Shown piece by piece: positions 4,141 to 48,621 of a stretch of 64,000 nt of DNA. Positions within the stretch are counted from its first letter, which is position 1, and the number at the start of each line of letters is the position of its first letter. The stretch is from positions 1-64,000 of the IMG/VR virus record IMGVR_UViG_3300047297_000301. One strand, given 5' to 3'. The translations under genes and the position numbers were made by a program. The stretch comes from a virus. The notes beneath the pieces were generated by a model. The model had not been told where the DNA came from. It saw nothing but the letters and a program-made list of their open reading frames with translations, and made no database searches.

Positions 4141-5337
4141 ATGGCATTAAATTTACTACGTAATAGTCGAGTTTTTTACACGACTAATTTAAATAGCTCA
4201 GGACAGGTGGCTTTAAGTGGTCACACTGCCTCAACAACACGAGAACTCCAAGTTTTGGACGGCTTCTCTTTTTCACAAAACACAGGTCAAGAAACAGTTA
4301 CTGTTAATGAAGCAGGTGCTGCACCTATTCGTGGTCAACGTAGTTTTAATACTTCGTTAGAACCAGTAGATTGGAGTTTTAGTACCTATATTCGCCCTAA
4401 GTTTAACGAAGGCACTACAAGTTTGACAGCGCTTGACTCAGACGACAAAGTTGACGCAGAAGAATATGTAATGTGGAACTCGATGGCTAGCGCTACAGGT
4501 AATGGTTGGACACAAACTGCAGCCATTGCAGGATCACCAGGAACAGCGCCTTTTTCAACAGTAGCTTTCACAAATTCAAACGTACACCAACTCCAAGCTT
4601 TTGGCTTGATTATTCAGTTTGAAGATGTTACTTATGTAATCGATAATTGCGCGATTGATTCAGCAACTATCGACTTTGGTTTAGATGCTATTGCTGCTAT
4701 TGCATGGGCTGGAAAAGGCACTGAGATGCGTCAATTGCCTACAACTTTAACAATCTCAGGTGCGGGTTCAGTTACTGGTGGTGGATTTACAGGAACAAAT
4801 GATTTCCAGCAAAAAGATACCTCAGCACGTTACATTGCTAACAAACTGTCTACAATGACACTGGCGTCTCAGACTTTTGGTGGATTAACTGGAACAAGTT
4901 ATGGTAATATTGCTATCACTGGCGGTAATGTAACAATCAGTAATAACTTAACATATTTAACACCTGCAAATTTAGGTGTTGTTAATGTTCCTATTACTTA
5001 TTTTACAGGTACTCGTTCTGTTACGGCTAATGTAACTTGTTATTTAAAAACAGGTACAGGTACCAGTGCCGAATTGCTTAAAGATATGTTAGCAGCTAGT
5101 TCAAGCAGTACTTCTAACAAATTTGAAGCTATAATTAAAGTAGGCGGTAACAACGATACTCGCTTTGAAATTGCTATGCCAACCACTCAGTTGACTATTC
5201 CTGCAATTACTTCTGAGCAGATTATTTCTACTTCAATTACTATGACTGCTCAAGGTTCTACTACTGGAACTGCTACTGGCGGATACGATCTTGAAGCCAA
5301 GAACGAAGTTACACTTAAGTATTACGCAGCGGCTTAA
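4141..5337 (+). CDS. Major tail tube protein (T5 pb6-like, no obvious C-terminal Ig domain)
   Basis: MALNLLRNSRVF; ELQVLDGFSFSQ; RGQRSFNTSLEPVDWSFSTYIRP; LTYLTPANLG; FTGTRSVT; followed by a terminator. Confidence 0.92.
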   Translation: MALNLLRNSRVFYTTNLNSSGQVALSGHTASTTRELQVLDGFSFSQNTGQETVTVNEAGAAPIRGQRSFNTSLEPVDWSFSTYIRPKFNEGTTSLTALDSDDKVDAEEYVMWNSMASATGNGWTQTAAIAGSPGTAPFSTVAFTNSNVHQLQAFGLIIQFEDVTYVIDNCAIDSATIDFGLDAIAAIAWAGKGTEMRQLPTTLTISGAGSVTGGGFTGTNDFQQKDTSARYIANKLSTMTLASQTFGGLTGTSYGNIAITGGNVTISNNLTYLTPANLGVVNVPITYFTGTRSVTANVTCYLKTGTGTSAELLKDMLAASSSSTSNKFEAIIKVGGNNDTRFEIAMPTTQLTIPAITSEQIISTSITMTAQGSTTGTATGGYDLEAKNEVTLKYYAAA

Positions 5338-5356: not shown

Positions 5357-5388
5357 AGAGACTGGGTTGATCTCCAGTCTCTCTTTTT
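5357..5388 (+). terminator. Intrinsic terminator after tail tube gene
   Basis: AGAGACTGG-8 nt-CCAGTCTCT-CTTTTT. Confidence 0.8.
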
Positions 5389-6222: not shown

Positions 6223-6251
6223 TTGACAAAAGAGTGCTCACATGTTATAAT
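6223..6251 (+). promoter_or_regulatory. Consensus sigma70 promoter upstream of tape measure gene
   Basis: TTGACA-N17-TATAAT with extended -10 TG. Confidence 0.9.
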
Positions 6252-6304: not shown

Positions 6305-9300
6305 ATGGCTAATAATGATACCGCTGTATTATATATTAAACTATCCGACCTTGGCACTATTAGTGCCAGTCACAAGGATTTAAAGGCTTTCAAAGGAACT
6401 TTTGATTCACTTCAAAAGGATATGAATAGACCTGCTGGTAAAGGTAAAGGCGGTTGGAAAAACGCCATGATGGGTAGCAACGAATATGATGTTGCCAGGG
6501 GTAGTGCCGGGGCAACGGGTGCATCTGGCCGAGACTTTGCAAATCAAGCTCGAGGGCTTGATGGATTAGTGCGCTTATACGCTACTTATGCAGCTAATTT
6601 ATTTGCGGCTGGTGCTGCTTTTCGCGCATTAAGTAACGCAGCAGATACTACTAATATGATCAAAGGTATGGATCAGTTAGGTGCTTCAAGCGGGCAAGCT
6701 CTTGGTACTATTGCTAAAAGATTAGTAAGTGTTACTGATGGCGCTATTAGTATGCGCGAATCTATTGAAGCTACTACTAAAGGTACTGCTGCAGGACTGT
6801 CATCAAAGCAAATGGAACAGCTGGGTATGGTAGCGAATAAAGCCTCTAAAGCACTAGGCGTCGCCATGCCAGACGCTATTAGTCGTTTAACACGCGGTAT
6901 TAGTAAACTCGAGCCTGAACTGTTAGACGAACTGGGTTTGTTTACAAAAATAGGTCCTGCTACAGAAAACTATGCTCGTAGTATAGGTAAAACCGCTAAC
7001 AGCTTAAGTGATTTTGAAAGACGTCAAGCGTTTGCTACAGCAGTATTAAAAGAAGGCTTAGACAAGTTTAGTGCTATTGATGTAAGCGCAAATCCTTATG
7101 ATAGGCTGTTAGCTAGTTTACAGAACTTAGGCCAAGGGGCTTTAGAAGTAGTAAACAAAGTACTAACACCGTTAGTCAATGTATTAACACAAAACCCTAC
7201 CGCTTTGTTAGCGGTTATTGCAGCAATTGGAGCGTCAATACTTAAAAGCGCGATACCTGCATTGGGCCAGTATCGTCAAAATTTACAAAATGCAGCCAAC
7301 GAAAGCCGAATGGTTTTCACCAAGATATATAGTGATCAACAAGAAAAACTCGGAGCCTTAGCGGATAGTGCAGGCGCAGCAGCAGCTGAAGCGTATAAAA
7401 AAGGTGCACCTACAATAGCTAAAATTGCCGAATTAGAAAAGTCTGCCAAAGGTTTTTCTAAAGGACGTAAAGATTTTGCAGCACTAGCAGGAAAAGATCC
7501 GTTTGCTATTACGCCTGAAGAAATCAAATCTTTAGAAAATCGTGCAAGATACTTAAAAGGTAGAAATGACGCTGAAGCACAAGCGCTTACCTTACACCTT
7601 GGAAAATTAAAAGCAATACGTGCGGGGGCAGCCGCAGCTTTTGATACAGCTTCTGAAGGTCTTATTAAAGGTACTGAGCCAGGGTATACTACACCAGGCT
7701 CTAACGATATTATAAATAAACGCACATTAAATAAATTAGCCTCAGAAAGTATTAGATCTACAACTGCAGAAACTCAAGCTATCTATGGTTCTAGAGCCGC
7801 ATACGCTAAATTAAATGAACAGATTGCTCTTGCTCGTGATAACAAGTTAAAGATAATTACTCGTTATGATGAAGAAGGTAAAGCAGTAGTAGAGAGTACT
7901 GGCAAAATGGGTAAACTTCAAGCAGGCTATACTCGCGTTGCAGGTGTAGTTGGTATTGTTGGACAAAAGATAGGTTCCTTGATAAGTGCTTTTGGTATTT
8001 ACGGAATTGTAGCTGGTGTAGTACTTCAAGCTTTAAGCATGCTTGATTCTGCGTTCTCTAAGGTAGGTAAACAAACAGAAGACTTCAATAAAGCTTTAGA
8101 CGGTAGTAAAGATGCTGTAGATAATGTTACCAGAACTTTAGATACTTTAAATAGGAAAGGCTCTTCTTCTACAATAAGTGGAATTTCTGCCCTATCTAAC
8201 GCAATGAATGAACTTACGTCGGCTACAGATGGTTCTGTAGACGCTGCTGAAAAATTAAAACAAGCTATTGCAGCAGGTGGTTGGTATGACGAACTACGTG
8301 AGTCAGTTCTAGGAATATTTGGAAAAGACGTAGATACTCAGTTAGCAAAAACACTTGCAGCTAGTTTACAAAGTACCCGTACTATACTACGTAGAACTGA
8401 TATCGGCTCAGATACTGATCAAAAATTAAAAGATGTTCTAGGAGTTGAAGAACTAGATATAAAAAGTGTTACTGAAGCTTTTAAATCAGGCAAGATTACA
8501 GTAGATAAGTACTTACAAATTCAAAAGATGTTAAATACTGCTTTAGGCAACAGTAGTAGTAAATTAAACGCTTTTAAAACAGCTACTGAAAATTCTAATA
8601 AAGCATACCAAGAGTTTATTCAATCAACTGCTAACACTAATCCATTATTTAAATTGGGTTCAAGTTTACAAGAAGTATCTATTGCAATGGGTGATACGCT
8701 TAAAGGAGGTGTTGACAGTCTAAATGCTGCGTTTAATGACTTAACGAATAATCCAGAAAAAGCAGCTTTATTTGGCGAAGCTTTTGTTAATTCGTTTGTA
8801 GCAATACGTACAGAGTTTAAGAGTACTTTTGATGCAGTAGCCAAAAACAGAGACGTGATGGCACAGTACCAAGGCAAAATTGAAGATGCTCAAAAAGCTT
8901 TAAAAGATTTACAAGAAAATAGTAAAGGTATATTTGCACTGCCTGGTCGAAACCAAATACAACAAGAGAAAAAAGCAGAAAAAAATCTTGAAAACTTACT
9001 AAGATCTCAAACCGAAGATGCAATGGTTATAGATACCTCTGTGTTTATCAAAGCAAGAGCTTTATTTGTAAGTGGCGTAGGAGCCGCTTTTTCAGAAGGT
9101 GCAAAAATTATTGATAAAGCACTTGGTCAAGCCAGTGCTAAGGCTGCATTAACTTTAGCTCAGGCACGTTCTGGAGCACTAAGCGGCGAACGTGCAGCAC
9201 TTGAGTCTGCTAGACTAAAAGACGAAGAGTTAAAAATACAACTAGCGGCTGTAGACCTGAACATGGAGCTAATAGGTAGTCAGGAACGCTTGATAGCAAG

Positions 9301-11035
9301 TATAGATGCTGCTACTGTTGAGTCTGCTCTTGGTCGAGCCGAAACGCAAGACGAGATAGATAGCTTAACAGCACAAGGCAAAGCTCTCGCAGCATTTAGT
9401 GAAATACTGAGAAAGGGCCCTGATAAAACTGGTAGGCTGCCTTTTCAATCTACCGGTACTGAAGAAGGCGACGCATTTTTGCAGGCTAGATTGCAAAAAG
9501 TTGGTCTTAGTATGGCTACGCAACAAGCTACAAAAATAGGCCTACGAGCCCAACAGGGTGCTAATACAATTACTGGTGAAAGAGAAAGAATTGGTGGCAG
9601 ATTCCAAGACATATCAAAAATAAGTGGCCTAGAAGATAATATTTCACAGCAAAAATTAACTCAATTAAATACTCAAAACAGTCTTAACAATGCTAGTACT
9701 GAAAACTCTCTTAAAGCAGCAGCAAGTTTAGAAGCAGAAGCATTAAACAATAAACAATACTTAGAACGCTTAGAAATTCGAAACAAAATTAATGATGCAA
9801 GTAAACAAGAAGCTGCAAGTAGGGACGACGAAAAAGCAAGGTACACCGAAGAAATTGCTTTCCAAACAAAAGTATTAGATCTCACAGAAAAACGTCAAAA
9901 AATAGAAACAGACAACAAAACCGAGCAGGATAGGATCAAACTTATAGAGCTACAGTTTAATAAAGAAAAACTTGTTAGAGACACTAAATCGCAAGCTGAT
10001 GAAAATGCTTTAAAAATGACAGCAGCACTATTAGGTGCTGACCAAGAAATGTATAATGTTCAATTATCCTTAGGCATTGTATATGGTCAACAAGCTGAGT
10101 CTCAAAGAAAATACCTTGAATACGCTAAATTATCTAATGAAATATCTCAATCTGAGTTAACGCTACAAAAAGCACGATCTGATGCTTTAGCGACAATTGA
10201 TAACACACTAGCTAAGCTTGATCCTAAAGATAAATTCTACGAAGAAAGAAAATCACAGCTTGCTGAAGAAAAAACTGCAATAGAAGCTAAATTCACTTCT
10301 GAAAAAACAGCCTTACAAATAACTAATGATGGTCGCAGAAATGCTTTAAACCTAACGCAGTCTTTAACAGATCGCCAATTAGCTTATGGTGAAGTATTTA
10401 AGCAAAGCTTTGACCAAATGGGTAATGCACTAATTGAGTTTACTAAAACTGGTAAATTAAACTTCAAAGGTTTAATTGACTCAATGATTGAAGGGTTAAT
10501 TCGTTATGAAATGGCAGAACAGTCAAAAATGGTGTATGGTGCATTTAGACCAGCTTTAATGGCCGGTATTAGTAGTTTTTTCGGGCCTACAATGTCCCCA
10601 CAACAACTAGCTACTTCTGCAAATGCATTTAATATAAATGCCAAGGGTGGAGTTTATAATACTGGATTAACAACATTTGCCAAAGGCGGAATGTTTACTA
10701 ATTCAATAGTAAGTTCTCCTACTTTGTTTAAATTTGCTAAAGGTGCTGGCTTAATGGGTGAAGCAGGACCAGAAGCTATTATGCCCCTAAAGCGTGACGG
10801 CCAAGGAAACTTGGGAGTTCGTGCAGGTGGAGGCGGCGGTAGTGTTGATGTAGTTGTTAATAATTACGGTAATCAGCAAGCTACCACAAAAGAAACCACT
10901 GATTCACGCGGAAATCGTAAGATCGAAGTTATTATTGGCGATATGGTTGCAAGTGAAGTAGCCCGTCCAGGAAGTTCAGTTCAACAGTCGCTAGCAGGTA
11001 GTTTTAATAATAGGCCCGCATTAGCAAGGAGATAA
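6305..11035 (+). CDS. Tape measure protein
   Basis: 1576 aa helical, Ala-rich. T5 pb2-like N-terminus (GLVRLYATYAANLFA; GISKLEPELLDELG). Lambda-type TMP C-terminus (FAKGG...MGEAGPEAIMPLKR). Confidence 0.93.
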   Translation: MANNDTAVLYIKLSDLGTISASHKDLKAFKGTFDSLQKDMNRPAGKGKGGWKNAMMGSNEYDVARGSAGATGASGRDFANQARGLDGLVRLYATYAANLFAAGAAFRALSNAADTTNMIKGMDQLGASSGQALGTIAKRLVSVTDGAISMRESIEATTKGTAAGLSSKQMEQLGMVANKASKALGVAMPDAISRLTRGISKLEPELLDELGLFTKIGPATENYARSIGKTANSLSDFERRQAFATAVLKEGLDKFSAIDVSANPYDRLLASLQNLGQGALEVVNKVLTPLVNVLTQNPTALLAVIAAIGASILKSAIPALGQYRQNLQNAANESRMVFTKIYSDQQEKLGALADSAGAAAAEAYKKGAPTIAKIAELEKSAKGFSKGRKDFAALAGKDPFAITPEEIKSLENRARYLKGRNDAEAQALTLHLGKLKAIRAGAAAAFDTASEGLIKGTEPGYTTPGSNDIINKRTLNKLASESIRSTTAETQAIYGSRAAYAKLNEQIALARDNKLKIITRYDEEGKAVVESTGKMGKLQAGYTRVAGVVGIVGQKIGSLISAFGIYGIVAGVVLQALSMLDSAFSKVGKQTEDFNKALDGSKDAVDNVTRTLDTLNRKGSSSTISGISALSNAMNELTSATDGSVDAAEKLKQAIAAGGWYDELRESVLGIFGKDVDTQLAKTLAASLQSTRTILRRTDIGSDTDQKLKDVLGVEELDIKSVTEAFKSGKITVDKYLQIQKMLNTALGNSSSKLNAFKTATENSNKAYQEFIQSTANTNPLFKLGSSLQEVSIAMGDTLKGGVDSLNAAFNDLTNNPEKAALFGEAFVNSFVAIRTEFKSTFDAVAKNRDVMAQYQGKIEDAQKALKDLQENSKGIFALPGRNQIQQEKKAEKNLENLLRSQTEDAMVIDTSVFIKARALFVSGVGAAFSEGAKIIDKALGQASAKAALTLAQARSGALSGERAALESARLKDEELKIQLAAVDLNMELIGSQERLIASIDAATVESALGRAETQDEIDSLTAQGKALAAFSEILRKGPDKTGRLPFQSTGTEEGDAFLQARLQKVGLSMATQQATKIGLRAQQGANTITGERERIGGRFQDISKISGLEDNISQQKLTQLNTQNSLNNASTENSLKAAASLEAEALNNKQYLERLEIRNKINDASKQEAASRDDEKARYTEEIAFQTKVLDLTEKRQKIETDNKTEQDRIKLIELQFNKEKLVRDTKSQADENALKMTAALLGADQEMYNVQLSLGIVYGQQAESQRKYLEYAKLSNEISQSELTLQKARSDALATIDNTLAKLDPKDKFYEERKSQLAEEKTAIEAKFTSEKTALQITNDGRRNALNLTQSLTDRQLAYGEVFKQSFDQMGNALIEFTKTGKLNFKGLIDSMIEGLIRYEMAEQSKMVYGAFRPALMAGISSFFGPTMSPQQLATSANAFNINAKGGVYNTGLTTFAKGGMFTNSIVSSPTLFKFAKGAGLMGEAGPEAIMPLKRDGQGNLGVRAGGGGGSVDVVVNNYGNQQATTKETTDSRGNRKIEVIIGDMVASEVARPGSSVQQSLAGSFNNRPALARR

Positions 11036-41514: not shown

Positions 41515-41820
41515 ATGCACAATGATTTAAAACTATTTAAATGGGCAATACTTTTGTTATCAATACCTTTAGCTTTAGCATTTTTTGGTAAAGACAGCTA
41601 TCGCTACCCATGTCAAGACCCTGCAAACTGGGAAAAAGATTACTGTAAAGTACCTATCTGTGACGTTAACAGAACTTGCCCAGAGCATATTTTCAAAGGC
41701 CAACGCGATCCAAGACTAGGACCTCCCAAAGATGGACAAACTCAAACAACTAATCAGTCATTTGCAGCAACAACTGCGTGCACACCTCAGCAAACACAAG
41801 GAGCTACCCGTGGAAAGTAA
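41515..41820 (+). CDS. Membrane-anchored 4-Cys periplasmic protein
   Basis: TM helix then YRYPCQDPANW...C..P.C.....CP. Confidence 0.7.
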   Translation: MHNDLKLFKWAILLLSIPLALAFFGKDSYRYPCQDPANWEKDYCKVPICDVNRTCPEHIFKGQRDPRLGPPKDGQTQTTNQSFAATTACTPQQTQGATRGK

Positions 41821-42268
41821 CCCAATTATTTATACTGAAGATCAGCTAATGGCGCGCCTAAAATTCTTTATTGGGATTTGTTTGGCCCTTACATTAACTG
41901 GCATTGTGTTTGTAGTTTTGTACTCCATTATTTTTATTACTCAACCGCTAAACGCTATTAGCCCGATTGACCAAAAGTTCTTTGAGATGATTATTCCTAT
42001 TGCTACCTTTTTAACAGGTACATTATCAGGAATTATGTTAGCAGGTGGTAGCAAAGAAGAAATGGAAATGAAACGTGACATGATTAAACAAGCGCAAGAA
42101 AATTCAAATACTTATGCTAAAGCTAATCCTGTAAAGATTGAACCAACCTTTTCGCCAGGATTCTCAACAACTGCAGGGTTTAATGGAACTAGTGCTGCTC
42201 CTGTTACTAATATTACTTATATTAACGGAAAGCCCGCTCCACAACAAGCACCACATCCAGAGATTTAA
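41810..42268 (+). CDS. Two-TM membrane protein
   Basis: AAGGAG SD before GTG 41810; two hydrophobic helices; IATFLTGTLSGIML. Confidence 0.7.
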   Translation: MESNPIIYTEDQLMARLKFFIGICLALTLTGIVFVVLYSIIFITQPLNAISPIDQKFFEMIIPIATFLTGTLSGIMLAGGSKEEMEMKRDMIKQAQENSNTYAKANPVKIEPTFSPGFSTTAGFNGTSAAPVTNITYINGKPAPQQAPHPEI

Positions 42269-42487
42269 ATGGATAACGTAAAAATTATGTTATCAGAAGA
42301 CTCAGCCGTTAGTAGTAAACGAGTAATTACTTTTTTAGCTTTTTTACTATGTGCTGGTGCTTTTATAGCTATGATACTTGGTTATCCCATAGACGCAAAA
42401 CTATTTGATTCTATGATGTTTATTGTAATTGCAGGATTAGGATTTACAGCAAGCGAAAAGTTTGCATCAACTAAGGAAAAGAAATGA
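42269..42487 (+). CDS. Small two-TM protein (holin-like)
   Basis: SSKRVITFLAF...IVIAGLGFTASEKF...KEKK. Confidence 0.6.
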   Translation: MDNVKIMLSEDSAVSSKRVITFLAFLLCAGAFIAMILGYPIDAKLFDSMMFIVIAGLGFTASEKFASTKEKK

Positions 42488-42699
42488 AAAAATTTATTGT
42501 AGCTGTTATTGCTAGTTTCGCACTTGTGTCAGCATTAGCTTGCGAAGCCGCAGAAACCAAAAAAGTCTGTAAAGAAAAAACAGATAAAGCTGGAAAGCCT
42601 GTACTAGACAAAGCAGGCAAACCTCAAGAAGAATGCAAAACTATTAAAGTACACCAAAAACTTGAAGGTACTAAAGTTGAAGACGCTAAGAAGAAGTAA
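42484..42699 (+). CDS. Secreted Lys-rich small protein with Cys pair
   Basis: Signal peptide MKKFIVAVIASFALVSALA; KKVC...ECKTIKVH.KLEGTKV. Confidence 0.7.
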   Translation: MKKFIVAVIASFALVSALACEAAETKKVCKEKTDKAGKPVLDKAGKPQEECKTIKVHQKLEGTKVEDAKKK

Positions 42700-44201: not shown

Positions 44202-44239
44202 AAAAAAGCCCCTATAGAGCAATCTATAGGGGCTTTTTT
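44202..44239. terminator. Bidirectional terminator, copy 1 (left boundary of island)
   Basis: AAAAAAGCCCCTATAG-AGCAAT-CTATAGGGGCTTTTTT between convergent genes. Confidence 0.92.
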
Positions 44240-44676
44240 CATTCTTGCAATGTCGAGTATAATTTCCAACCGTGTTCACGGTGTTCTTCTATACGTTCAC
44301 TTAAAAATGCACATAAGTCTGGCATTTTATACATTTCAGCTAATTGATATGCTGTTAGTAGTGTTTCATGTACTTTGACGTTATCTATATACAATGTGCG
44401 TACCATCTCTTTTGGAGGAAGAATTTCTAGTGTATCTTGTATATCGGACATTTCTTTTAAGTGTTGAAAACTTGCATGCACATAAATGTTTTGACCACGT
44501 AAAGTTTCAGCAAAGTCGTCTAACTCGTCTTGAACTTCGTCGTATATATCTCCAAACAACTTATGGTACTGTACAAAGTTAACACCAGTTACATTCCAGT
44601 GAAAGTTTTCTGCTTTTACTAAAAACGCATAGGTTGTTGCAAAAGCCCGTTTAAGGGCCATGTGTAGTTCTTCCAT
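44239..44676 (-). CDS. dps: Dps (mini-ferritin)
   Basis: KAENFHWNVTG..F.QYHKLFGDIYDE....DDFAE; HREHGWKL. Confidence 0.92.
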   Translation of the reverse strand: MEELHMALKRAFATTYAFLVKAENFHWNVTGVNFVQYHKLFGDIYDEVQDELDDFAETLRGQNIYVHASFQHLKEMSDIQDTLEILPPKEMVRTLYIDNVKVHETLLTAYQLAEMYKMPDLCAFLSERIEEHREHGWKLYSTLQE

Positions 44677-45080
44677 TATACAACATTCCAGTTAGTGCCG
44701 CTAAATATTAGTGTAACTGCACCATCTGTTGCGGCTAAAACGGTATAGCTTGCTGCATTTTCAACAGTTTCTGCTCCGTTTGGAGTAATTGTAAAATCAC
44801 TGGTTTGACCAGCTTCTGATTTTACTACTACTACACGACCTTCTGTGCCTGCTGTTAATAATATACTAATTGCAGCACCTGTGCCAACTACTCCAAGATA
44901 GTAGTTAGGTGTTGCGCCAGCGCTATCAAGAGTATAAGGACTTGCTGCATTGTTTACTAATTTAGTGTTAACTGTGCCGTTGCCAACAACAGAAATAACG
45001 CCGTTGGTTACGTTTACACCGCTTCCAACTTTAACTACACCATAGTTGGTGGTTGAACTTAAGGGGCTATTAAATGCCAT
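44676..45080 (-). CDS. Fibre-like protein (shared N-motif + WNVV-ending beta domain)
   Basis: AAGGA SD; N-terminus shared with 45644, C-domain shared with 46135. Confidence 0.75.
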   Translation of the reverse strand: MAFNSPLSSTTNYGVVKVGSGVNVTNGVISVVGNGTVNTKLVNNAASPYTLDSAGATPNYYLGVVGTGAAISILLTAGTEGRVVVVKSEAGQTSDFTITPNGAETVENAASYTVLAATDGAVTLIFSGTNWNVV

Positions 45081-45092
45081 GATTTTTCCTTT

Positions 45093-45644
45093 TTAACTAA
45101 TTCTAGTCATTGTAACTTTTAAACTACTGCCTGTGGGTCGCGTAGGCGTAACTCCAGCAGGTAGTGCACTGAGATTTACTGTTGTGTCTGCACTAGACCA
45201 ACAAAACTGTAGATCGCTGTTAGCAGCCATTGGCAGAGTAAAGTTGCCGCTGGTAAATATTATTGAAAGTGTGTTTATTAACTCTAAGTCTTGTCGTGAG
45301 CCAGGTACGTCAACACCATTATATCGCAACCAAATACTCATTGAGCTAGTACCTCCACTGGTTTTTGCCATTGTGGTAGTAAATAGCACTGTGTACACAC
45401 CAGCATTGGTTACTCGCAAAATGTCACTACCTATTAGTGTAACACCATTGTTAGGCCCTGCAGTGCTAAATGTACCTATGTTAACTTGATTTGCAACTGG
45501 ATTGGTTTGTGTTCCGTTGCTGTAGAATCCGTAATTTAACAGACCACTTCCTGCACTAACTACTCCATCTGTAACACTTAAGCCACCTCCAACTTTCATT
45601 ACTCCATAGTCTGCGGTAGAGGCTAGGGGTTGATTATAACTCAT
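45093..45644 (-). CDS. BclA-C/C1q-like beta-sandwich protein
   Basis: ATGA overlap start (MSYNQPL); RVTNAGVYTVLF...IWLRYNGVDVPGS pattern. Confidence 0.65.
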   Translation of the reverse strand: MSYNQPLASTADYGVMKVGGGLSVTDGVVSAGSGLLNYGFYSNGTQTNPVANQVNIGTFSTAGPNNGVTLIGSDILRVTNAGVYTVLFTTTMAKTSGGTSSMSIWLRYNGVDVPGSRQDLELINTLSIIFTSGNFTLPMAANSDLQFCWSSADTTVNLSALPAGVTPTRPTGSSLKVTMTRIS

Positions 45645-46135
45645 ACTACATTCCATTCTATGCCGTTATAGATTAGGCTAATTGAGCCCCAGTCTGTGTT
45701 TAGTAGGTAGTTTGGTTGTGAGTCAATTGTTGACCCAGTAGTTACCACAGTAATCGGATTCGTGTTAGCGTCTCCAACAGCATCCTTGATAACATAAACT
45801 TTGCCCACAGTACCCGCAGGTAAAGTAATCGTAACTGAGCCATCATAAATAACACCTAAAAAATATTCTGTTGTTGTTGCCGCATAAGCAGTTTCATCTA
45901 TTAATGTAACAGGTACGTCCGCTAGGCTACCTGGCTCACCTTGTGGTCCTTGTGGACCAGGTGGACCTGGTGGACCAGGTGGACCTGGTGGACCTATAAC
46001 ATTACTGTTTATAACTAGGTCAAGATCGTCGAATTTAGGAGGACAAAAAGGTACTATAGGAGCAGGTAATATTGGTGGTATAAATCCAACCATAGGCCAA
46101 CCAAAAGGCATACTCTGCTTTTGTCGTTGATCCAT
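45641..46135 (-). CDS. Collagen-like protein
   Basis: AAGGA SD; Pro-rich N-terminus; (GPP)4-GPQ-GPQ-GEP; C-terminal TITLPAG..GKVYVIKD...WNVV domain. Confidence 0.8.
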   Translation of the reverse strand: MDQRQKQSMPFGWPMVGFIPPILPAPIVPFCPPKFDDLDLVINSNVIGPPGPPGPPGPPGPQGPQGEPGSLADVPVTLIDETAYAATTTEYFLGVIYDGSVTITLPAGTVGKVYVIKDAVGDANTNPITVVTTGSTIDSQPNYLLNTDWGSISLIYNGIEWNVV

Positions 46136-46148
46136 ATTTATTCCTTAT

Positions 46149-46181
46149 AAAAAAGCCCCACAACTTGTGGCTGCGGGGCTT
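46149..46181 (-). terminator. Intrinsic terminator inside island operon
   Basis: Minus strand AAGCCCCGCAG-CCACAAG-TTGTGGGGCTTTTTT. Confidence 0.75.
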
Positions 46182-46198
46182 GTTAAACACATTAAATA

Positions 46199-47116
46199 TT
46201 AACGGATGCTAGTATTTGTGTTAGTTGGGTTAGCAGTCAATGTGCCGCTTCCAACATTAATTGCACCATTTGTGATGTTTTGGCCTAATCCATAGATTAA
46301 GTTTGCCAAGTGTGCATACTGAGCTTGTTGTTGTGATTGTTGTTGCATTTGATTGATGTTATTGGTATTTGTAAGAGTAATACCGCTAGTAGCACTATCT
46401 AAAGCTGCACGATTTTTTAGTGCAATAATTTCTGCATTTGCATCGCCAAGTTGACGATTTAATGTAGCTTCGTATTGTGCAACAATTAAAGCACGAGTCT
46501 TTTCACCATCAGCTGCAATGTCTTTGCTTAACTCATAGCGATTTTCCATGATGTTTTGGTTAATTGCAGCTTGCCCTTGCATTAAGGAAACTGCATTTTG
46601 GTTAACCACATCTTTTAAACCACTAATGTTATTTGTAAGCGAACTAGCTACACTTGCTAATTGGGTTGTAATGCCCAATGATTGTGTAGCTTGTGATGCT
46701 TCAAATGCTGCTGTTGAAACAGCAACTGACTTATCAACAGCACCAATTGCTGCCATTAAACTCATATTAGCTTGAGTTTGTTCTGGAGGACTACGAAGAA
46801 CTGCACCTGCTGCTGCACCGCCACCATCTCCGCCTAAAAGGTTACCGTTGTTGCGAAGCAAACTTCCCAAGATCAATCCACCGATTAAACCGCCACCGCC
46901 ACCGCCGCCAAATAACCCATCACCACCGCTACCGCCGCCCATAATCATACCTGGAGTCATAATTTCTGCCATGTTTTTATCCTTTAGTTTTGTAATCTCA
47001 CCCATAACTTTTGAATAGTAGTTATTAGCTTGATCAATTTTAGTTTGAAGCGCACTCATATCATATCCAACGTTATTTGTTGAATTTAATTCTGGTACGC
47101 CAGTTTCATCCGCCAT
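46199..47116 (-). CDS. Gly-rich hydrophobic segment + long coiled-coil protein; in-frame starts at 47116 (305 aa) and 46972 (257 aa)
   Basis: AAAGGA SD before both ATGs; GLFGGGGGGGLIGGLILGSLL; Ala/Gln/Asn-rich heptads. Confidence 0.8.
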   Translation of the reverse strand: MADETGVPELNSTNNVGYDMSALQTKIDQANNYYSKVMGEITKLKDKNMAEIMTPGMIMGGGSGGDGLFGGGGGGGLIGGLILGSLLRNNGNLLGGDGGGAAAGAVLRSPPEQTQANMSLMAAIGAVDKSVAVSTAAFEASQATQSLGITTQLASVASSLTNNISGLKDVVNQNAVSLMQGQAAINQNIMENRYELSKDIAADGEKTRALIVAQYEATLNRQLGDANAEIIALKNRAALDSATSGITLTNTNNINQMQQQSQQQAQYAHLANLIYGLGQNITNGAINVGSGTLTANPTNTNTSIR

Positions 47117-47187
47117 AGAAATTCCTTTTAGAGCAGAAATGATACTGCGTATCACGCGCAGTTACCAAAACCTTGGCAACTGCAGTA

Positions 47188-47271
47188 ATTATAACATGAT
47201 TGATATATGAGAGCAACCTTAATTTTCTGGCTACAGGAGTAGAAATGCAAGTTACTAAGAAATTATGTTCC
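47188..47271 (-). promoter_or_regulatory. 84-bp promoter cassette, copy 1 (TTGCTC-N17-TATAAT + conserved upstream region)
   Basis: 73/84 identical to 47588-47671, no indels. Confidence 0.8.
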
Positions 47272-47299
47272 GCTAACAACAATCCACTAAACCAAAAAA

Positions 47300-47554
47300 T
47301 CAATATAGCTCTTTTTTACTACGTTGTTTTGATTGCATATACTCTGATACACTAACCAGCATTGACTTAGTTACAGCAATTTTTTCTTGTACCCATTCAG
47401 GCACATTGTCTTTGTCGTTGATTACCTCATCTATATTTTCTATAGCACGTCTCATGGTTCTTAGATTACTTTCAACCATAGTAGCTTCATCATTGTATTC
47501 TTTACTATTACTATAAGGCGTTTCATTGTACTTATATACCCAGTATGTTCTCAT
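47300..47554 (-). CDS. Small helical hypothetical protein
   Basis: AAAGGA SD; NVPEWVQEKI motif; flanked by the two promoter cassettes. Confidence 0.75.
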   Translation of the reverse strand: MRTYWVYKYNETPYSNSKEYNDEATMVESNLRTMRRAIENIDEVINDKDNVPEWVQEKIAVTKSMLVSVSEYMQSKQRSKKELY

Positions 47555-47587
47555 AATTTATTCCTTTAAAGTTTATTAACCGTAAGT

Positions 47588-47671
47588 ATTATAACATGAT
47601 TGATATGTCACAACAACCTTAATTTTCTGGTTACAGGAGTCAAAATGCACGTTACTATAAAATTCTGTTCC
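47588..47671 (-). promoter_or_regulatory. 84-bp promoter cassette, copy 2 (TTGTTG-N17-TATAAT + conserved upstream region)
   Basis: Direct repeat of 47188-47271 at an offset of exactly 400 bp. Confidence 0.8.
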
Positions 47672-47676
47672 AAAAG

Positions 47677-47713
47677 AAAAAGCCCCTATAGAGCAATCTA
47701 TAGGGGCTTTTTT
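47677..47713. terminator. Bidirectional-type terminator, copy 2 (right boundary of island)
   Basis: 37/37 identical to 44203-44239, same orientation. Confidence 0.92.
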
Positions 47714-47714
47714 G

Positions 47715-48443
47715 TTAGCTAAATAGTTTCTTTTTCAGAAGTCTATATCGGCCGTGAAATTTACTAGAATAAGCAAATTTATTGGCCATATCCTTAAACT
47801 CTTTTGGGTCAATTAAATGAGTTTTTAATATAACTTTTCGCTCAGTTAAGGGTAAGATATTAAGCAAAGGTTCTCCTGCATATAAGTTAATGTCTGCATT
47901 AACTTTTTTAGGTAGCCACATATTACAATTTGCACCACATTGGTATTTATAATTTAAAACACCACCAGGGATTCTAAACTTAAACATATCACTAGGCTTG
48001 TTCCAGTCGGAATAAAATAATTGAAAATTTATTCCTGATTTTTCTTGTAATTGCCAAGGTACTGTAATTTTCATATGTATTAAATCATTAAACTCTTCGT
48101 GTTCAAACTGAGCAGAAGGATGATGACCAATCTTTGTGTCTTCAGCGGAACTTTTCCACGCAAAATTGCCGTGCTCATCATACTTTAGTATTAAATCAGT
48201 CCACAGCGGTATAGTAAACATATTTTTATACATGTCTAATAAACCTTCGCATACTTTAGCAGTAGCCATTGGTGTAATGATTGGGCTATTTTCAGTAGCT
48301 ACTTCGCAGTGAGATTTTAAAGATTTCCACCAGTTAGGGTATATTTCGGTAGCCTTTACAACAGGGTTATGATGATATACTCCTGCATGATCAGTAAATG
48401 CATCTAAAGTAATAGGACGCAATCGTGAAATAATATCAAACAT
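47715..48443 (-). CDS. Hypothetical protein (P.WWK.L...T.K.C.G family)
   Basis: Long ORF; probable start MFDIISR overlapping the upstream gene. Confidence 0.75.
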   Translation of the reverse strand: MFDIISRLRPITLDAFTDHAGVYHHNPVVKATEIYPNWWKSLKSHCEVATENSPIITPMATAKVCEGLLDMYKNMFTIPLWTDLILKYDEHGNFAWKSSAEDTKIGHHPSAQFEHEEFNDLIHMKITVPWQLQEKSGINFQLFYSDWNKPSDMFKFRIPGGVLNYKYQCGANCNMWLPKKVNADINLYAGEPLLNILPLTERKVILKTHLIDPKEFKDMANKFAYSSKFHGRYRLLKKKLFS

Positions 48444-48621
48444 TTTTAGTTTCTTCAACAGCGGGTTCTTTTATAGAAAGTTGCTCTTGGGCTTGTCTTA
48501 CTAACTTATTAGTTAGTGGGTTAGAAACTTTAGCAGGTAATTCTTGTAGTCCTGCTAAAATTGTATTTGCTTCTTCCACCGTAAGTTTTAGTGTTATAAG
48601 TGTATCTTTTTCTTGTTCCAT
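48436..48621 (-). CDS. Small hypothetical protein
   Basis: LTVEEANTILAGLQELP...QAQEQL; AGGT SD. Confidence 0.7.
   Translation of the reverse strand: MEQEKDTLITLKLTVEEANTILAGLQELPAKVSNPLTNKLVRQAQEQLSIKEPAVEETKNV

Follow-up and report, generated by a model that had tools for sequence, protein, structure and literature searches.

The sequence analyzed here, referred to below as the window, comprises positions 1 to 64,000 of the IMG/VR virus record IMGVR_UViG_3300047297_000301 and belongs to a complete viral contig of 99,690 bp, bounded by direct terminal repeats, of which it forms the first 64 kb. The virus appears to be a distant T5-like siphophage because its tail-tube gene (4141–5337) shares 33–35% identity with the tail-tube genes of T5-like Vibrio and Serratia phages; no close nucleotide relative of the genome was found among 50,697 phage records. 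Between positions 44,202 and 47,713, the minus strand carries an island of six genes: a small open reading frame (p84), a gene for a largely helical protein (p318), three fiber-like genes (p164, p187, and p134) and a dps gene, together with two copies of a promoter cassette, an internal terminator and two bounding terminators (Table 1). The original prediction, made from the sequence alone, had proposed such a layout, and every element that it listed was recovered on the minus strand, almost base for base. The DNA has been recovered from freshwater, estuary, runoff, and wastewater metagenomes of several studies. In our analysis, p318 emerges as the lead gene of a conserved, mobile operon whose regulatory logic is fixed and whose fiber modules form a Lego-like set. 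We tentatively read the island as a portable accessory operon for a modular adhesin fiber that may well be carried on virions.

Layout and regulation of the island

The layout of the island does not look like chance. The window contains exactly two copies of the 26-nt terminator core GCCCCTATAGAGCAATCTATAGGGGC, where 0 are expected, one at each edge of the island, the left copy at positions 44208–44233. Likewise, the 17-mer core of the promoter is found without mismatches at only two sites in the window, both of them the island promoter copies. The promoter block is present in 21 related loci of this lineage; six relatives carrying p84 have two copies of it, spaced 400 nt apart. The p84 gene is confined to the closer relatives, and its product has no match in Pfam or PHROG and resembles only unnamed viral clusters in the ESM Atlas. 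The island promoters had been described as atypical and they are indeed unlike the promoter of the tail operon at positions 6223–6251, a perfect TTGACA-17-TATAAT consensus. The latter lies downstream of a terminator (5357–5382) that follows the tail-tube gene, an arrangement in line, for this gene, with the earlier claim that abundant structural genes of this genome are followed by terminators ahead of minor genes. A reading of the promoter block as a sigma-54 or sigma-S promoter, judged by eye, was not convincing.

The most telling regulatory element is the internal terminator, or attenuator, in the gap between p318 and the fiber genes. A hairpin followed by a T-run is kept 3′ of p318 in 48 of 57 distinct loci, and in the attenuator alignment (alignment A5, 36 loci) each of the 11 consensus pairs has compensatory changes on both sides. 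Since the hairpin is conserved and covaries, and since the promoter block is conserved within the lineage, the transcriptional layout, with a major gene, an attenuator, and minor genes, appears to be fixed. Even in distant cassettes, where the stem covaries, the hairpin loop keeps the sequence CCAC-AAG; it may have a role beyond simple termination, for example as a binding site or in regulated read-through. In the pap and fim pilus operons a terminator or attenuator also follows the major subunit gene, and the layout of the cassette would similarly set a high ratio of major to minor products. The likeness concerns the layout only, however: the cassette lacks chaperone-usher or secretion machinery, and its proteins have neither signal peptides nor a pilin fold. 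Contigs from two freshwater metatranscriptomes span the island, and their summed depth is highest over the 3′ half of p318 (206 and 72 in the RNA runs vs. 19 in a DNA run with a flat profile); as contig depths cannot rank genes, this peak gives only a weak hint, and stretches lacking coverage, such as p247, are uninformative.

Table 1. Genes and regulatory elements of the island, listed in the direction of transcription (window positions)
Feature	Position	Strand	Description or basis
Right-hand bounding bidirectional terminator	47677–47713	-	Perfect hairpin with T-runs on both sides; 26-nt core identical to that of the left copy
Promoter cassette, copy 1 (84 nt)	47588–47671	-	Upstream block of ~58 nt, weak -35 TTGTTG, 17-nt spacer, extended -10 TGtTATAAT
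p84 (84 aa)	47300–47554	-	Open reading frame list; own promoter copy
Promoter cassette, copy 2, driving p318	47188–47271	-	87% identical to copy 1; weak -35 TTGCTC
Small hairpin in the p318 leader	47144–47162	-	Hairpin detection
p318, conserved "major" protein (305 aa from ATG 47116)	46199–47116	-	
Internal terminator (attenuator) between p318 and the fiber genes	46153–46181	-	12-pair stem and T-run
p164: anchor, collagen run, β-sandwich head	45641–46135	-	
p187 (183 aa): N-terminal fiber motif and TNF/C1q/BclA-fold head	45093–45644	-	ATGA overlap with the p164 stop
p134: p187-type N-terminal motif and p164-type β-sandwich head	44676–45080	-	
dps (145 aa)	44239–44676	-	TAATG overlap with p134
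Left-hand bounding bidirectional terminator	44202–44239	.	Shared with the convergent plus-strand operon

The p318 protein and its fiber-like partners

The p318 family numbers more than 2066 homologs (250 clusters at 50% identity). It is known from freshwater metagenomes and from cultured phages of Acinetobacter, Iodobacter, and Pararheinheimera, and all of its members are unnamed, with no solved relative or described function. Searches of Pfam, PHROG, the PDB sequences, the PDB structures with Foldseek, and the named clusters of the ESM Atlas yielded no match, and a search for longer fused forms found none either, which is weak evidence. The true start is the ATG at 47116, because the homologs begin with MADE. 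In the AlphaFold2 model, a helix (residues 21–46) is followed by a disordered glycine-rich stretch that contains a short hydrophobic helix (residues 78–88), a long helix (residues 112–279), and a disordered tail; the predicted local distance difference test score (pLDDT) of the long helix exceeds 90 for residues 140–240. Family members, 250–390 residues in length, conserve a GxxxGxxxG zipper (in all homologs), the motifs LGDIKA and DGEKTRALI, a poly-Q stretch, and the terminal motif NPTNTNTxxR. The C-terminal tail is strongly conserved and contains a fiber-like INVGSG motif; the region preceding the zipper is variable or absent, with N-terminal extensions of up to about 130 residues.

Over residues 112–279, the family-averaged hydropathy periodicity peaks at 3.65–3.67 residues (power 22.5; median 3.5), the power at the heptad period of 3.5 residues being 0.9, and the long helix does not qualify as a heptad coiled coil. 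This suggests a periodicity of the hendecad rather than the heptad type. No segment reaches a hydropathy of transmembrane level, the highest Kyte-Doolittle mean over 19 residues being 1.38 and lying outside the zipper, whose helix is only about 11–12 residues long. On the basis of the hendecad helix and the low hydropathy, p318 is predicted to be a soluble, straight helical rod of about 170 residues more likely than a membrane protein, and its interpretation as a classical membrane protein or an i-spanin analogue is ruled out by hydropathy and topology.

The same data bear on the possibility that p318 is membrane-active through its glycine-zipper peptide, acting in DNA delivery, lysis, or superinfection exclusion, with the fiber genes as ordinary virion parts that happen to share its transcription unit. 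The conservation of the hydrophobic GxxxGxxxG segment in all homologs and the position of one homolog, that of the Acinetobacter phage At2, directly upstream of a lysis cassette would agree with such an activity, and the layout of p318 recalls those of class-I fusogens and of the phiX174 H pilot protein. Nevertheless we consider it improbable. Besides the low hydropathy and the short zipper helix, the charge distribution and the N-terminal extensions, devoid of any signal peptide, speak against a normal membrane topology, the spanin-, holin-, and endolysin-like genes are located elsewhere, on the plus strand, and the tight co-inheritance of p318 with the anchor/β-sandwich gene described below would be left unexplained.

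Within p318 (46979–47116), an in-frame internal ATG is found at Met46 (MAEIMTPGMIMGG..), with AAGGA upstream. Short forms of p318 in other phages start exactly at this position (MAEILQPSGMIMSG.. and MAEVLSPTGMLMGG..) and occur in both siphophage and myophage cassettes, which indicates that the 45-residue N-terminal helix is a lineage-specific add-on; two isoforms of p318 are possible in this phage. A profile search of the genome contigs with the p318 sub-alignment gave three loci.

The gene downstream of the attenuator, p164, encodes a conserved N-terminal anchor rich in proline and aromatic residues (M..QQQ.MPFGWP...D.DLFINS in alignment A4), then a collagen run and a β-sandwich head. The run consists of 7–8 G-X-Y triplets (GPPGPPGPPGPPGPQGPQGEPG) and scores 20.9 bits against Pfam PF01391, below the cut-off of 27.2 bits; within the p164 family, PF01391 matches 25 of 28 members with a best E-value of 1e-17, and relatives contain 7–27 triplets. 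The collagen repeat appears to be real, and all three genes are fiber-like, as the original prediction held. The prediction made collagen a defining part, however, and in this respect it has to be corrected: the triplets are wholly absent in some cassettes, and the stalk is thus optional. For the head, the A4 profile weakly matches the N-terminal region of T4 gp34, the proximal subunit of the long tail fiber (PDB 9x3r_M, E 0.0016), and the tailspike 7rfv (E 0.11). The Pfam model T4_gp9_10_N matches 4 of 28 family members, all below its cut-off (best E 0.004), and phrog_972 is matched with an E-value of 7e-4. The possibility that p164 is a lipoprotein or carries a signal peptide was ruled out, as its N-terminal cysteine is not conserved.

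The earlier description of p187 as BclA/C1q-like stands at the level of the fold, with E-values down to 5e-8. The AlphaFold2 model (pLDDT 79, predicted template modeling score 0.71) matches in the PDB F-BclA (9h38, E 4.6e-8), BclA (2r6q and 1wck), BxpB (8d02), ExsFA (7r5i), 4-1BBL, EDA, and C1QL2, with a Foldseek probability of 1.0 and a target-normalized template modeling score of up to 0.76. At the sequence level, no Pfam model, those of C1q and BclA included, matches p187 at E≤0.1, and there is no match among PDB sequences at E≤10. The protein is kin to the C1q/TNF/BclA jelly-rolls by fold only, and the fold family suggests that it forms trimers. Nearly all of its 782 homologs are 183 residues long. 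In the BFVD database, the same fold caps many long fiber proteins of uncultured Caudovirales, with collagen repeats, Stf repeats, S74 chaperone domains, or YadA-like regions; p187 itself looks like a stand-alone fiber tip.

In p134, the product of the third gene, a p187-type N-terminal motif is joined to the C-terminal head of p164, the shared segments corresponding to the DNA repeat families D1 and D4–D6. No paralogs of the p164, p187, and p134 modules were found elsewhere in the 99.7-kb genome. In the related locus L053, two adaptor-bearing paralogs (7102–8220 and 8222–9322) carry β-helix heads of the Ice_binding-like type (PF11999, E 8e-31 and 3e-28), which stand in place of the TNF-like head on the shared N-terminal adaptor. 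TNF-like, β-sandwich, and ice-binding-like tip heads appear to be exchangeable on a common N-terminal adaptor.

Co-inheritance, mobility, and the link to Dps

Among 48 relatives in which both flanks of the slot are present, a collagen-repeat gene of the p164 family follows p318 in 45, and a homolog does so in 47; many of these junction loci are near-duplicates, so that the counts are not independent. The remaining content varies, with 0–4 extra β-sandwich paralogs, p187-type tips in about a dozen loci, and a Dps gene in some. The pairing of p318 with the anchor/β-sandwich gene persists at other genomic positions, flanked by genes for terminase, RNA ligase, endonuclease, or sigma/helix-turn-helix regulators. 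The expectation that homologs of the island genes would travel in company is therefore borne out for these two, which are found together in nearly all cases and move as a pair. Among the carriers is a myophage whose complete 171-kb genome has terminal repeats and encodes a tail sheath and no T5-type tail tube; there, the second gene keeps the anchor and the head and has no collagen triplets. From its distribution, the cassette is accessory and mobile, shared by hundreds of related phages and by at least one unrelated phage. We found no description of it in the literature.

The island lies between the ribonucleotide reductase (RNR) gene and p212. At this junction p318 is present in 14 of the 60 relatives that cover it; most of the others leave almost no gap between RNR and p212. 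Some of these relatives have the cassette elsewhere on the same contig (in the list of relatives, L092 and L051 denote one contig, as do L105 and L057). Empty sites contain a single, nearly identical copy of the bounding terminator (AAAGCCCCTACAGAGCAATCTGTAGGGGCTTT in L089), which fits a gain or loss of the cassette at the terminator. This accessory character, the duplicated terminators that bracket the island and its variable content could also be accounted for without any joint function, if the junction of convergent operons were a hot spot that gathers unrelated accessory genes, or morons. Another gene of the junction, p247 (47715–48458; phrog_7084, function unassigned), lies between p61 and the right-hand terminator of the island; it occurs in none of 80 p318-centered relatives and, among relatives covering the junction, only in L090 and L149 besides this genome, and is a separate insertion of the kind expected at such a hot spot. 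Yet p318 and the anchor/β-sandwich gene move jointly to nonhomologous loci and into another type of phage. The attenuator that separates the two is conserved as well, and the genes share modules and are translationally coupled. We consequently regard a chance gathering of morons as very improbable.

At the alternative location in L045, L051, L054, L057, L069, and L074, the collagen gene is followed by a conserved protein of about 73 residues (MSSIKVYPQNC...), and a YkuK-type RNaseH_like protein (PF04308, E 2e-17 in L045) comes next in five of these loci, L069 excepted. In a large-phage fragment, a gene for a sigma-factor/helix-turn-helix-like regulator is located directly upstream of p318 (L082:5054–5779).

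Distant homologs of p318 stand without partners of the cassette type. In phage At2, the homolog (NNFDKGAK_00065) has a large tail protein on one side and the lysis genes on the other; in the Iodobacter myophage PhiPLPE, it is gp38, annotated as "putative tail-fiber" in a record that marks gp34 and gp35, and not gp38, as confirmed by mass spectrometry; in a Lelliottia prophage it follows the tail-fiber genes, and in the Pararheinheimera myophage KLER1-1 it is gp74 and lies among replication genes. These solitary homologs also speak to the idea that p318 is an abundant helical chaperone or scaffold for the assembly of the downstream trimeric fiber proteins, comparable to T4 gp57A and traveling with its clients. 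Such a role would be compatible with the production of p318 in excess over its putative clients, with its co-inheritance with fiber genes, and with a model that is all-helical, prone to oligomerize, and devoid of any recognizable binding domain. A chaperone is not expected in phages that lack such clients alongside, however, and its size together with the conserved INVGSG tail is unlike the known small fiber chaperones; we give little credence to this role.

The last gene of the island can be assigned with security, its product being a member of the Dps family. It matches Pfam Ferritin (PF00210, E 1.5e-14, 54.6 bits with a cut-off of 24.5 bits), phrog_3636 (E 1.3e-21), and 35 solved Dps chains at E≤1e-3, the best being 8ff9 (E 1e-14), to which the ferroxidase residues FHWNVTG..F...H and DD.AE align column by column. 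A same-strand gene of the ferritin superfamily is found within 4 kb of p318 in 26 of the 52 distinct loci with at least 3 kb of downstream sequence, in three configurations: a late Dps (17 loci), a Dps directly after p318 (4 loci, 40–60% identical), or a rubrerythrin (5 loci). In other backgrounds, a rubrerythrin (PF02915, E 1.6e-17) closes the cassette at L081:6362–6814 and L062:8836–9288, and in three further loci it lies 2.5–3.4 kb downstream. Of the junction loci, 8 of the 11 that carry p318 also have Dps, compared with 1 of the 20 that lack p318 (Fisher p = 1.7e-4, uncorrected for relatedness). The proposed link between Dps and the fiber genes is thus more than incidental, whereas the notion of Dps as an obligatory part does not hold, as it is absent from the myophage cassette and from half of all copies. 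Dps is a recurrent, dispensable, co-transcribed passenger, replaced by rubrerythrin in other copies.

Ferritin-like proteins of phages are known as a group (PHROG 3636, PF00210), and the island Dps, with its ferroxidase segment aligned, clearly belongs to it. It differs in being embedded in, and translationally coupled to, a fiber operon, in a slot that elsewhere holds either of two Dps types or rubrerythrin. We found no paper describing a linkage between Dps and a fiber operon, and the repeated recruitment of Dps or rubrerythrin represents an unexplained link between fiber genes and the handling of peroxide and iron. A pairing of Dps with the phage heme oxygenase/PcyX, which would release iron, was ruled out, the latter pair being present in 1 of 31 relatives and not tracking with Dps. 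The heme oxygenase/PcyX pair of this genome (38181–39384) is shared with just the closest of the 31 relatives that cover the region (L131); these phages have acquired it either rarely or very recently.

A proposed modular fiber, on or off the virion

Co-inheritance, the sharing of modules, head swapping, the conserved attenuator, and the fiber-type folds are best explained if the genes of the cassette form one functional unit, whose pieces would dock by means of their anchor and adaptor motifs and in which p318 would serve as the abundant rod or base. The cassette consists of phage fiber modules of a known kind led by an uncharacterized protein family, and we propose the following assembly. 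p318, with its own promoter and the conserved attenuator behind it, would be made in excess and would form a long, straight α-helical rod, oligomerizing through the hendecad helix and the glycine-zipper segment. Read-through would yield less of the second protein, with its Pro/aromatic anchor, optional collagen stalk, and a β-sandwich possibly related to the docking domains of T4 gp9, gp10, and gp34, as well as one or more tip proteins with an N-terminal adaptor of about 30 residues and exchangeable heads. Docking of these pieces on each other through the anchor and adaptor motifs would result in a branched or daisy-chained trimeric fiber, whose binding target head swaps would retune. A prediction of a complex between three copies of p318 (residues 112–305) and three copies of p164 (residues 1–75) gave a score of 0.00, run without controls, and is evidence neither way. 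As no island protein has a signal peptide, assembly would take place in the cytoplasm, and the fibers would then be placed on progeny virions as extra adsorption fibers. Dps would not be a structural part of the fiber; it would ride along as a peroxide- and iron-handling passenger.

A location on virions is favored by the fiber-type domains, by the absence of export signals, and by the distant p318 homologs that lie beside tail-fiber genes. Several phages possess modular receptor-binding complexes to which the cassette can be compared, such as the T4 gp9/gp10/gp34 attachment domains, the tailspike adaptors of CBA120 and G7C, and the branched LtfA/LtfB lateral fibers of the T5-like phage DT57C. 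Here too, small trimeric fiber proteins appear to dock through short N-terminal adaptors and gp10-like β-sandwiches, the distal heads are exchangeable, the β-sandwich head shows a weak sequence similarity to T4 gp34 and gp9/gp10, and the fold of the p187 head is the tip fold of many long phage fibers. On the other hand, the cassette is located outside the tail module with a promoter and an internal attenuator of its own, is led by an uncharacterized helical protein made in excess, and is portable between siphophages and myophages; we found nothing to connect it with a baseplate or collar protein, and the homology of the adaptor domains is only marginal.

In its genomic behavior, the cassette also resembles accessory virion proteins encoded away from the main structural clusters, such as the phi29 head fiber gp8.5, T4 Hoc, Soc, and fibritin, and T5 pb10. 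These are nonessential, patchily distributed, abundant, and separately promoted, as is the cassette, and the phi29 head fiber, of about 280–300 residues with a long helical coiled-coil shaft, resembles p318 in particular. p318 differs from such decoration proteins in having no sequence or fold match and no recognizable capsid-binding domain, and in coming with its own set of partners.

Several points nevertheless weigh against fibers borne on the virion. No result places any protein of the cassette in a virion, and a search of the literature found no virion proteomics for At2, KLER1-1, PhiPLPE gp38, or any cassette-bearing phage. The cassette mostly stands outside structural modules, beside genes for RNR, RNA ligase, endonuclease, terminase, and regulators, and its promoters are of another type than the consensus promoter of the tail operon. 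Its use by siphophages and a myophage, with no recognizable lineage-specific adaptor, is awkward for a specific docking on virions, and a large excess of p318 over the fiber proteins is unlike the need of a fiber with shaft and tip in a 1:1 ratio. p318 homologs also occur without fiber partners, that of KLER1-1 among replication genes, and the similarity of the β-sandwich head to gp10 and gp34 is weak.

Some of these points would be more readily understood if p318 built a filament, an array, or a rosette outside the virion, through its glycine zipper and rod, decorated by the minor fiber proteins. Such an autonomous assembly could act in the infected cell or after lysis, by masking receptors or debris, by aggregating cells or particles, or by protecting progeny, in conjunction with a defense against peroxide and iron. 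It would account for a dedicated promoter cassette unlike those of the structural operons, for a conserved attenuator that enforces the stoichiometry of major and minor components, and for nonstructural neighbors. It would also agree with the portability of the cassette from a T5-like siphophage to a 171-kb myophage with no virion-specific adaptor, with the lack of paralogs of its modules among the structural genes, with the ferritin-superfamily genes in half of the cassettes, and with the matches of the p187 fold to the exosporium anchors BxpB/ExsFA and to ENA tip fibrils.

The latter matches merit a closer comparison. In the exosporium nap of Bacillus, BclA consists of a collagen-like region with a TNF/C1q-like C-terminal domain, and a Pro-rich N-terminal peptide anchors it to BxpB/ExsFA; the F-ENA appendage combines an F-Anchor with an F-BclA tip (PMC12357932). 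The C-terminal domains of BclA and F-BclA, together with BxpB/ExsFA, are the best PDB matches for the fold of p187, a Pro/aromatic-rich N-terminal anchor precedes the collagen stalk in the cassette as well, and both systems combine a major subunit with minor collagen and tip proteins. The cassette proteins, however, show no membership at the sequence level in the Pfam C1q or BclA models, the collagen stalk, itself optional, and the TNF-like head are found on different polypeptides, the major protein is α-helical and not a β-jellyroll Ena subunit or ExsY/CotY, and the context is that of a lytic phage with a presumably Gram-negative host.

Against an autonomous assembly, it should be noted that each recognizable domain of the cassette is a standard phage module for fibers or receptor binding, that neither export signals nor a hydropathy of transmembrane level were found, and that no result bears out self-assembly, or the coat, floating particle, or membrane-active particle of the original prediction. 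Scattered accessory virion genes with promoters of their own, such as T4 hoc, soc, and wac, are also well known. On balance, an assembly separate from the virion seems to us unlikely, though worth serious attention. We are more doubtful of its fullest form, a nanostructure with p318 as a glycine-zipper hub, swappable trimeric adhesin heads, and co-expressed peroxide/iron proteins, which would represent a mobile "extended phenotype" module of freshwater siphophages and myophages. Since TNF-like tips and a β-sandwich resembling gp10 and gp34 are ordinary phage fiber modules, an accessory fiber borne on virions is at least as likely as a separate system, and it is the interpretation that we tentatively retain. 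If the fibers do reside on virions, the cassette would be a new, horizontally portable module for host adsorption, with consequences for the prediction of host range in the abundant uncultured phages of lakes; if they do not, it would represent a new kind of phage-built structure.

Finally, the plus strand carries, just upstream of phoH (41732–42699), genes for two small proteins that are membrane-bound or exported: a 72-residue holin-like protein with two transmembrane segments and a 71-residue protein with a lipobox-like LVSALAC motif. They resemble the last genes of the lysis cassette, which converges on the island.

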